A stretch of DNA of 40,286 nucleotides, taken from the IMG/VR virus record IMGVR_UViG_2541047822_000001, positions 1 through 40,286 of that record; one strand, written 5' to 3'. The notes under the pieces are model-generated. The model was not told the DNA's origin and ran no database searches. It was given only the letters and a program-made list of their open reading frames with translations. A program made the translations under genes and the position numbers. Numbering within the stretch: position 1 is the first letter of the stretch; each line of letters starts with the position of its first letter. This stretch comes from a virus. Lineage: Duplodnaviria; Heunggongvirae; Uroviricota; Caudoviricetes. Below are positions 17,149 to 17,656 of this stretch, piece by piece.

Positions 17149-17305
17149 CTTCTTATCCTTAACGTTCTTCGTGGGGGTGAGATTAATCTTAATGCACCTT
17201 GAGCGAATAGTCTTCTATAAAAATATATCACTGTAAAAAAACAATTTTTTCTTACAATACAATATATTACATTAATGAAATCAGTAATTACACAGGAGGA
17301 ATAAC

Positions 17306-17656
17306 ATTCCGCAACGAACCCCAAAAGCCTGCCGTGTTCGCGGCTGCCGCCATACCACCACTGACCCGTCAGGCTATTGCGAAAGCCACAAAAGCGAAGG
17401 CTGGAAGCAATACAAACCTGGACAATCCCGTCATCAGCGCGGCTACGGTTCGAAGTGGGACAGTATCCGCGCGCGTGTCCTGAAGCGTGACAAAGGCCTG
17501 TGTCAGTTATGTCTGCGTTCTGGTGTGGTGCGTGAGGCGAAAACTGTTGACCACATCATCCCTAAAGCGCATGGCGGCACTGATGCTGACAGTAATCTGC
17601 AGAGTCTGTGCTGGCCGTGTCATAAGGCGAAGACGGCCCGTGAACGGTTGAAGTAA
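17306..17656 (+). CDS. HNH endonuclease (terminase-associated) with apparent ATT start
   Basis: Frame gives ...KACRVRGCRHTTTDPSGYCESH...LKRDKGLCQLC...DHIIPKAHGGTDADSNLQSLCWPCHKAKTARERLK (zinc-finger plus HNH). No ATG/GTG/TTG between the upstream stop (17285..17287) and the conserved N-terminus; the only near-cognate codon is ATT at 17306, with AGGAGG 6 nt upstream. Confidence 0.65.
   Translation: MPQRTPKACRVRGCRHTTTDPSGYCESHKSEGWKQYKPGQSRHQRGYGSKWDSIRARVLKRDKGLCQLCLRSGVVREAKTVDHIIPKAHGGTDADSNLQSLCWPCHKAKTARERLK

Follow-up and report, generated by a model that had tools for sequence, protein, structure and literature searches.

A cos-adjacent HNH endonuclease gene with ATT in place of the ancestral ATG start codon in one sub-lineage of SfV-like Escherichia coli prophages

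The stretch of DNA analyzed here, called the window below, is positions 1 to 40,286 of the viral record IMGVR_UViG_2541047822_000001. It holds a complete-looking SfV/e14-like prophage that is integrated at tRNA-Thr (thrW) beside proA. The genes on the way to the packaging region are, in order, a Q antiterminator, holins, a GH19 endolysin, Rz/Rz1, an orphan gene on the opposite strand, a 157-nt AT-rich spacer, and a gene encoding an HNH endonuclease. Further downstream lie the cos end, a P27-family terminase small subunit gene (terS), an HK97-type terminase large subunit gene (terL), portal, HK97 prohead protease, capsid, and a Mu-like contractile tail; the portal, the HK97 family prohead protease, and the major capsid protein 3' of terL are annotated by RefSeq in a near-identical prophage. 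Long contiguous blocks of the window between ~17670 and ~34980 share 97-98.5% identity with the isolated phages SfI, SfII, SfIV, and SfV. As linear records, the SfIV and SfV genomes have their right and left termini at two neighboring positions ~58 nt past the HNH stop codon, so that the virion chromosome opens with terS and closes with HNH. Coordinates of the features are collected in Table 1. The hexamer AGGAGG occurs 13 times on the + strand of the whole window and not once on the − strand, an excess that fits the strong + strand bias of prophage late genes.

Table 1. Features around the HNH gene, in window coordinates
Feature	Position	Strand	Basis or remark
Orphan gene, 112 aa, "moron", part of the lineage-specific upstream module	16810..17148	-	ORF list
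AT-rich intergenic part of the same module, always linked to ATT	17149..17305	.	12/5426 E. coli genomes
Mini-ORF, nine codons, ATG..TAA, MKSVITQEE*	17275..17304	+	ends 1 nt before ATT
Shine-Dalgarno sequence AGGAGG	17294..17299	+	6 nt 5' of the start codon
Predicted hairpin GGAAU-AAC-AUUCC, 5 bp, over the 3' end of the Shine-Dalgarno sequence and the start codon	17298..17310	+	MFE fold
ATT (AUU), putative start codon of the HNH gene	17306..17308	+	homology with ATG starts; RefSeq CDS start
Lineage-specific 5' end ATT CCG CAA (ATG CCC/CCA CCA in relatives); apparent mosaic junction	17306..17314	+	allele comparison; megablast match starts
HNH endonuclease CDS, 116 codons + TAA, predicted HK97 gp74-like packaging accessory type	17306..17656	+	Pfam, PHROG, and PDB matches
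Approximate cos end (virion right end / left end in SfIV, SfV)	17714..17715	.	genome record termini: end at 17714, begin at 17715
Terminase small subunit (P27 family, Terminase_4)	17782..18267	+	Pfam PF05119, E=6e-21; RefSeq homologue; ATG 17782
Terminase large subunit (HK97-type ATPase + nuclease)	18281..20014	+	Pfam TerL_ATPase, TerL_nuclease

The preliminary description of this locus had named the gene a terminase-associated HNH nuclease, and both the product and its neighborhood bear this out. The translation (IPQRTPKACRVRGC...) matches the Pfam HNH family PF01844 (E=1.1e-16, residues 66-112), PHROG 144 "HNH endonuclease" (E=4e-45), and the HNH endonuclease of phage GVE2 (PDB 5h0m, E=4e-12, residues 2-114); the motifs C..C / DH..N..CWPCH are unbroken in this small protein, including the paired CxxC zinc ligands, and the gene adjoins cos, terS, and terL. 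The gene order of terminase-associated HNH endonucleases has been surveyed by Xu & Gupta 2013 (PMC3592412). According to PMC9410871, which reports the work of Kala et al. 2014, HK97 packaging depends on gp74, which stimulates TerL in cutting cos. Like gp74, the window's product is a small (116 aa) HNH/zinc protein; its gene is the final one ahead of cos, with a P27-family terS and an HK97-type terL following directly and an HK97-type portal, protease, and capsid after them. The assignment to the gp74 type is made by the HNH motif and the gene order, the nearest solved relative being the GVE2 HNH structure, and the gene departs from that class in having an ATT rather than an ATG start. Orthologous, likewise cos-adjacent HNH genes with few substitutions are found in SfV (orf53), SfIV, SfI, SfII, ST64B (sb56), and SKA5. 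In contrast to the window, these phages have ATG CCx CCA (MPPR...) behind weaker Shine-Dalgarno sequences (SDs) and other upstream sequences; among them, ATT CCG CAA (MPQR...) behind AGGAGG and a moron module is seen in the window only.

As read from the letters, the HNH frame is closed upstream on the + strand by TAA at 17285-87 and continues as TTA CAC AGG AGG AAT AAC ATT CCG CAA CGA ACC CCA AAA GCC TGC, i.e., AGGAGG, the 6-nt spacer AATAAC, and ATT, from which 116 codons run to a TAA at 17654-56. In the mechanical ORF list, no in-frame ATG, GTG, or TTG is found upstream of GTG 17525, which is codon 74. A start at this GTG lies inside the catalytic domain and yields a 43-aa fragment, which would cost the protein its N-terminal zinc ribbon and about half of the HNH domain. 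The preliminary description was thus accurate in every detail of the open frame, the SD, and its spacing, and its reading of ATT as the only plausible initiator stands. We also found that the ATT is already the annotated CDS start in RefSeq/PGAP (WP_024188390.1 and WP_024256831.1), in one genome identical to the window over 17150-17800 and in at least six others, and that PGAP sets no pseudogene flag on the gene.

We compared this codon with that of 51 other homologues, consisting of five E. coli loci, six isolated phages, 39 loci from a one-genome-per-species scan, plus 118970_sal3. All 51 have ATG at exactly the position of the window's ATT. The five E. coli prophage loci with other upstream sequences (L002, L003, and L010-L012) read, for example, ATG CCC CCA CGA ACC CCA AAA GCC TGC, and the isolated phages SKA5, 118970_sal3, SfI, SfIV, SfV, and ST64B likewise have ATG at the HNH start. 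The scan of one genome per bacterial species gave 39 full-length homologues, from Shigella, Edwardsiella, Citrobacter, Mangrovibacter, Xenorhabdus, Photorhabdus, Klebsiella, Providencia, Haemophilus, Burkholderia, Halomonas, and others, and all 39 begin with ATG followed by Pro (MP[PSA]R...). The position of the ATT is therefore set by homology and not by chance, as the same codon is the ATG start in all other homologues examined. The alignment that had been proposed as a check on the ancestral codon shows that ATG is ancestral and ATT derived, and the concern that homologues might normally start at an internal site downstream is answered by the exact alignment of their ATG with the ATT. The same universality of ATG outside the lineage speaks against the use of AUU to the extent that the family as a whole appears to have no preference for a weak start. 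As a separate observation, the orthologous HNH gene of Salmonella phage 118970_sal3 (L014, NC_031940.1, about 291-640), has an ATG start, and in the record its place is taken by a "hypothetical protein" and a 40-aa "HNH endonuclease", both of them short ORFs read in other frames; the full-length frame of the gene has an altered C-terminus (...CHKAKTPVNG*), which suggests a 3'-end frameshift or a sequencing error.

Within the first 213 nt of the CDS, the window differs from the nearest ATG alleles (L003, L012) only at nt 3, 6, and 8, i.e., G>T in the start codon, one synonymous change, and CCA>CAA (P3Q). These differences cluster where homology with other prophages begins, and we consider this spot a mosaic junction for that reason. 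In a megablast search with window 17150-17800, the HNH-terS region was found in 1212 of 5426 complete E. coli genomes; nearly all of the matches start at 17304-17314, i.e., at the start codon, and upstream sequence was also matched in only 11 genomes. The upstream module itself (16790-17330) is present in 12 of the 5426 genomes and has no match in phage records by blastn of the phage collection, and a sensitive blastn search of E. coli genomes and phages for diverged copies returned only the same 12 genomes. On these alignments, the ATT belongs to the boundary of the upstream module and is no isolated point mutation in an unchanged context. Where the preliminary description offered an ATG-to-ATT mutation, its direction holds with ATG as the ancestral codon, but a clean single substitution is not what the clustered changes at nt 3, 6, and 8 look like.

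The module also contains the 112-aa orphan gene between the lysis cassette and HNH, which is a typical moron position. Its product has no match in Pfam or PHROG. Beyond near-identical E. coli copies, the only relatives are ~62% identical, one in a short Logan contig and one in the same slot of an Enterobacter hormaechei prophage. This Enterobacter locus carries no information on the ancestry of the ATT; different genes follow the moron there, and the initiation region is unrelated (TAATTGGAGTAAAT ATG CAG). Repeat lengths vary in the spacer that separates the divergent moron from HNH. The pentanucleotide ATTAC (17266-17275) is present in one copy in the window and in two or three copies in other lineage members, and the number of copies is correlated with an A or a G at 17278. 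The A-run at 17237-17243 is A8 instead of A7 in one strain, and two other strains have a T>A change in the adjacent T-run (A3T5 for A2T6). Such polymorphism could alter the geometry of a promoter or of the leader.

The ATT allele is by no means private to the window. Among sequences that share the upstream module, drawn from complete genomes, viral contigs, and a metagenome contig, 32 of 32 have ATT CCG CAA, and the ATT is always accompanied by the CCA>CAA change (P3Q); in every lineage member sampled, the context is AGGAGGAATAAC ATT CCG CAA. The hosts of the 12 complete genomes came from humans, dog, chicken, pig, cattle, egret, and wastewater on several continents. Scans in which the third base of the start codon was left free gave three viral contigs and one metagenome contig, all with ATT, and none with ATG in the same context (third-base-N pattern in viral and metagenome contigs; ATD CCG CAA pattern in viral contigs). 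RefSeq-style proteins beginning with MPQR... occur on 198 + 78 NCBI contigs (~276), compared with 708 contigs for the commonest ATG allele (MPPR...), and 20 of 20 further loci retrieved through these proteins have ATT. The MPQR... proteins were found in NCBI and NCBI-derived sources only, which is expected if other gene callers do not call ATT, and a GTG-start 43-aa fragment of HNH has been deposited as a separate protein. A sequencing or assembly artefact at 17306-17308, the read error that the preliminary description had warned of, or a mutation private to this genome is ruled out by the recurrence of ATT CCG CAA in 32 independent assemblies; we found no point in favor of an artefact and give it practically no weight. 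No isolated phage with the ATT or its upstream module was found in the phage collection searched.

What distinguishes the ATT alleles beyond the codon itself is the initiation region. The predicted duplex between the 21 nt upstream and the 16S 3' end is −10.3 kcal/mol, which ranks first among 49 homologous initiation regions; the others have a mean of −5.4 (sd 2.3) and a best value of −9.0 kcal/mol. The region from −35 to +35 is weakly folded, at −7.7 versus a mean of −14.0 kcal/mol. The mediocre SDs of most homologues suggest that the HNH nuclease is normally made at modest levels. That the family's best SD precedes its only non-AUG start is suggestive of a site that still recruits ribosomes, and the strong SD may be either compensation for the weak codon or simply a property of the imported module. 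The inverted repeat GGAAT-AAC-ATTCC, which overlaps SD and start codon, requires ATT to be perfect, and it is conceivable that the G>T change arose through template-switch "correction" of this quasipalindrome. The 90-nt initiation region folds no better than its shuffles (z = 0.19). A Rfam scan of 16600-18000 gave no known leader or riboswitch, only a chance eukaryotic scaRNA match far below threshold, and in a promoter/terminator scan of 16600-17900 the counts were not above those of shuffles, with nothing convincing before the HNH gene.

A nine-codon mini-ORF (ATG 17275, TAA 17302-04) offers another conceivable entry into the HNH frame, either by re-initiation on the AUU after the UAA or by a prfB-like +1 shift at GAA-UAA-C that would give an N-terminally extended protein. 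The mini-ORF contains the SD and stops 1 nt before the ATT, and it is kept in all lineage members; its conservation is uninformative, though, as the region is nearly invariant, and its ATG has no SD of its own. The +1 shift of prfB needs an SD spacing of ~3 nt. Here, the SD directly borders the shift codon, and AAU does not allow tRNA-Glu to re-pair; we judge a +1 shift unlikely on account of this spacing and re-pairing. Re-initiation near a stop codon is established in E. coli, but it needs IF3 and the initiator tRNA, so the AUU would still be disfavored (PMC2268962). The homologues with ATG starts have no requirement for such a mini-ORF, and we regard entry from it, by either route, as very improbable.

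AUU is a poor start codon in E. coli. In reporters, its output is ~1-2% of that of AUG, and infC and pcnB are the only confirmed AUU-initiated E. coli genes (10.1101/063800); non-canonical starts are repressed by IF3 (PMC2268962). By analogy with infC and pcnB, with which the window shares an AUU at the N-terminal codon and an SD before it, a low and IF3-sensitive output would be expected. The AUU of infC, following Sacerdot et al. 1996 as cited in PMC2268962, is part of an autoregulatory loop. The HNH gene differs from infC in that its AUU is derived and limited to one prophage sub-lineage, the other orthologues having AUG, and in that no regulatory loop is evident.

We favor the reading, with a probability of roughly 60%, that the gene encodes a live packaging nuclease of the HK97 gp74 type that is translated at a low level from AUU in one prophage sub-lineage. 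The ATT would have arisen from ATG at or together with the junction to the module (moron, AT-rich spacer, and SD) and would then have been carried unchanged. The late, Q-antiterminated transcript would pass the lysis genes and the antisense moron and reach the HNH gene, where AGGAGG, 6 nt upstream of the AUU in an AU-rich and weakly folded leader, would place the 30S subunit. The fMet-tRNA would pair with AUU with a mismatch at the third position, and IF3 would discriminate against this complex so that the output is a few per cent of that of an AUG equivalent, a loss that the unusually strong SD may partly offset. The HNH protein would then help the large terminase cut cos as an accessory nuclease. 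The layout, ancestry, distribution, and intact frame of the gene are shown by the sequences; from them we infer that AUU is indeed used and how much HNH is made. As a small catalytic partner of terminase, the protein can presumably do its part in packaging at a low level.

The state of the coding sequence is compatible with a working gene. The 32 ATT sequences comprise six CDS alleles with no internal stop and no frameshift; 29 sites are variable, of which 21 are synonymous-only and eight are in codons that change the amino acid. All of this variation is at nt 138 or beyond, and the first 137 nt are invariant, so that the conservation of the ATT may simply reflect the youth of the lineage. The 3' parts of the ATT alleles are 1-3 nt from ATG alleles and up to 24 nt from one another, which indicates that the diversity stems from recombination within the gene with other prophages. 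Diversity alone is therefore no proof of purifying selection on the ATT alleles, and the intact ORFs and the synonymous excess may have been imported. The allele comparison nevertheless shows that the ATT junction has outlasted several such recombination events without replacement by an ATG 5' end.

The same data have to be weighed for a hypomorphic or null allele, i.e., a gene whose HNH output falls short of what cos cleavage takes, in prophages that are defective in packaging and persist vertically and by recombination with related prophages at thrW. This would fit the fact that all 51 other homologues, the six isolated phages among them, have ATG, the low activity of AUU in the reporters cited above (10.1101/063800), the rarity of the lineage among complete genomes (12 of 5426) and its absence from isolated phage genomes, and the recombinational look of the variation 3' of nt 138. 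Three members also carry large deletions in packaging or tail genes. In the twelfth genome, BE2-5 (L019, 3517-4176), what is left of HNH is the ATT and ~25 nt, which a deletion has joined to a baseplate gene; the PGAP annotation of the resulting fusion CDS begins at the ATT. A deletion in L106 (2151-2978) fuses terS to the nuclease domain of terL with a 275-aa product, and neither terS nor terL is called in the matching interval of L107, which suggests the same deletion. Degraded members of this kind are as found in any prophage family. A dead gene would, however, be expected to gain frameshifts, or to gain an ATG 5' end through the same recombination that shuffles its 3' part, whereas the ORF is intact in 32 of 32 sequences and in six alleles behind the strongest SD of the family, and the remaining structural module is ~98% identical to that of functional phages.

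The flanks of the prophage bear on the same question. Since all copies sit at thrW (thrW-proA in five of five lineage prophages examined, of the 12 complete genomes), the integration site is uninformative on mobility, which we inferred only from the divergence of the flanking proA. Between the window, AF46, and the other hosts, proA differs at 31-50 of 1254 nt (up to 4%), and yet in five of the same six genomes the HNH CDS alleles are only 0-3 nt apart, with FDAARGOS_1337 differing by 21. Divergent proA together with near-identical HNH alleles suggests that the ATT allele, once it had arisen, spread horizontally, and hence that the phage is transmissible, which argues against a null allele; host recombination is a possible alternative route of this spread. 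All told, we hold a hypomorphic or null allele to be unlikely, though it is the main rival reading. The window's own proA (1-1254) is 40-50 of 1254 nt (3-4%) from that of five other lineage-carrying E. coli strains, a large distance for this species that points to either a divergent host lineage or recombination in the flank.

The preliminary description had left two options, a rare non-canonical start that keeps translation low or a recent ATG-to-ATT mutation that inactivates the gene. The former, a retained non-canonical start, is favored by the combined evidence, namely the 12 genomes and ~276 contigs, the proA divergence of up to 4%, the six intact alleles, and the SD ranked 1 of 49; an inactivation that is "recent" is disfavored by it. 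A stronger version of the retained start is that the AUU is adaptive, in that IF3 discrimination against it throttles a DNA nuclease or couples it to the state of the translation machinery. The moron and the AT-rich, promoter-like spacer would have put the nuclease gene under lysogenic transcription or behind too strong an SD, with the start codon serving as dosage control. We consider this doubtful, and if true, it would be a natural phage case in which the dose of a packaging enzyme is controlled at the level of the start codon.

Our literature search on ATT start codons in phage HNH genes returned nothing relevant; the case is without description in the literature searched, yet the ATT start already stands in RefSeq annotation. 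If the AUU is used, this HNH gene would be among the very few natural AUU-initiated genes of E. coli and its phages beyond infC and pcnB, and hundreds of near-identical ATG alleles with different ribosome-binding sites provide a built-in comparison set. Such a set makes the locus a convenient natural experiment on the extent to which a strong SD makes up for a weak start codon, and on the minimum of HNH needed for cos packaging. If the allele is null, it marks a widespread packaging-defective prophage lineage. Either reading is an incremental addition and no new principle. Please note that gene callers limited to ATG, GTG, and TTG miss the HNH gene or truncate it to the 43-aa GTG fragment, and prophage-completeness tools may, as a consequence, wrongly score the packaging nuclease as lacking.

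A further difference from the usual arrangement was seen at the 3' end of terS, where the window has an 8-nt insertion at 18256-18263, CTGACAAT, that nearly repeats the CTGAAAAT after it. With the insertion, the protein ends in ...NPFLTI* (161 aa) rather than ...NPFLKIIES* (164 aa), and a 13-nt gap before the terL ATG takes the place of the usual ATGA overlap of terS and terL. The 161-aa terS is not private to the window and is also found in L099, L101, L103, L105, and L108.
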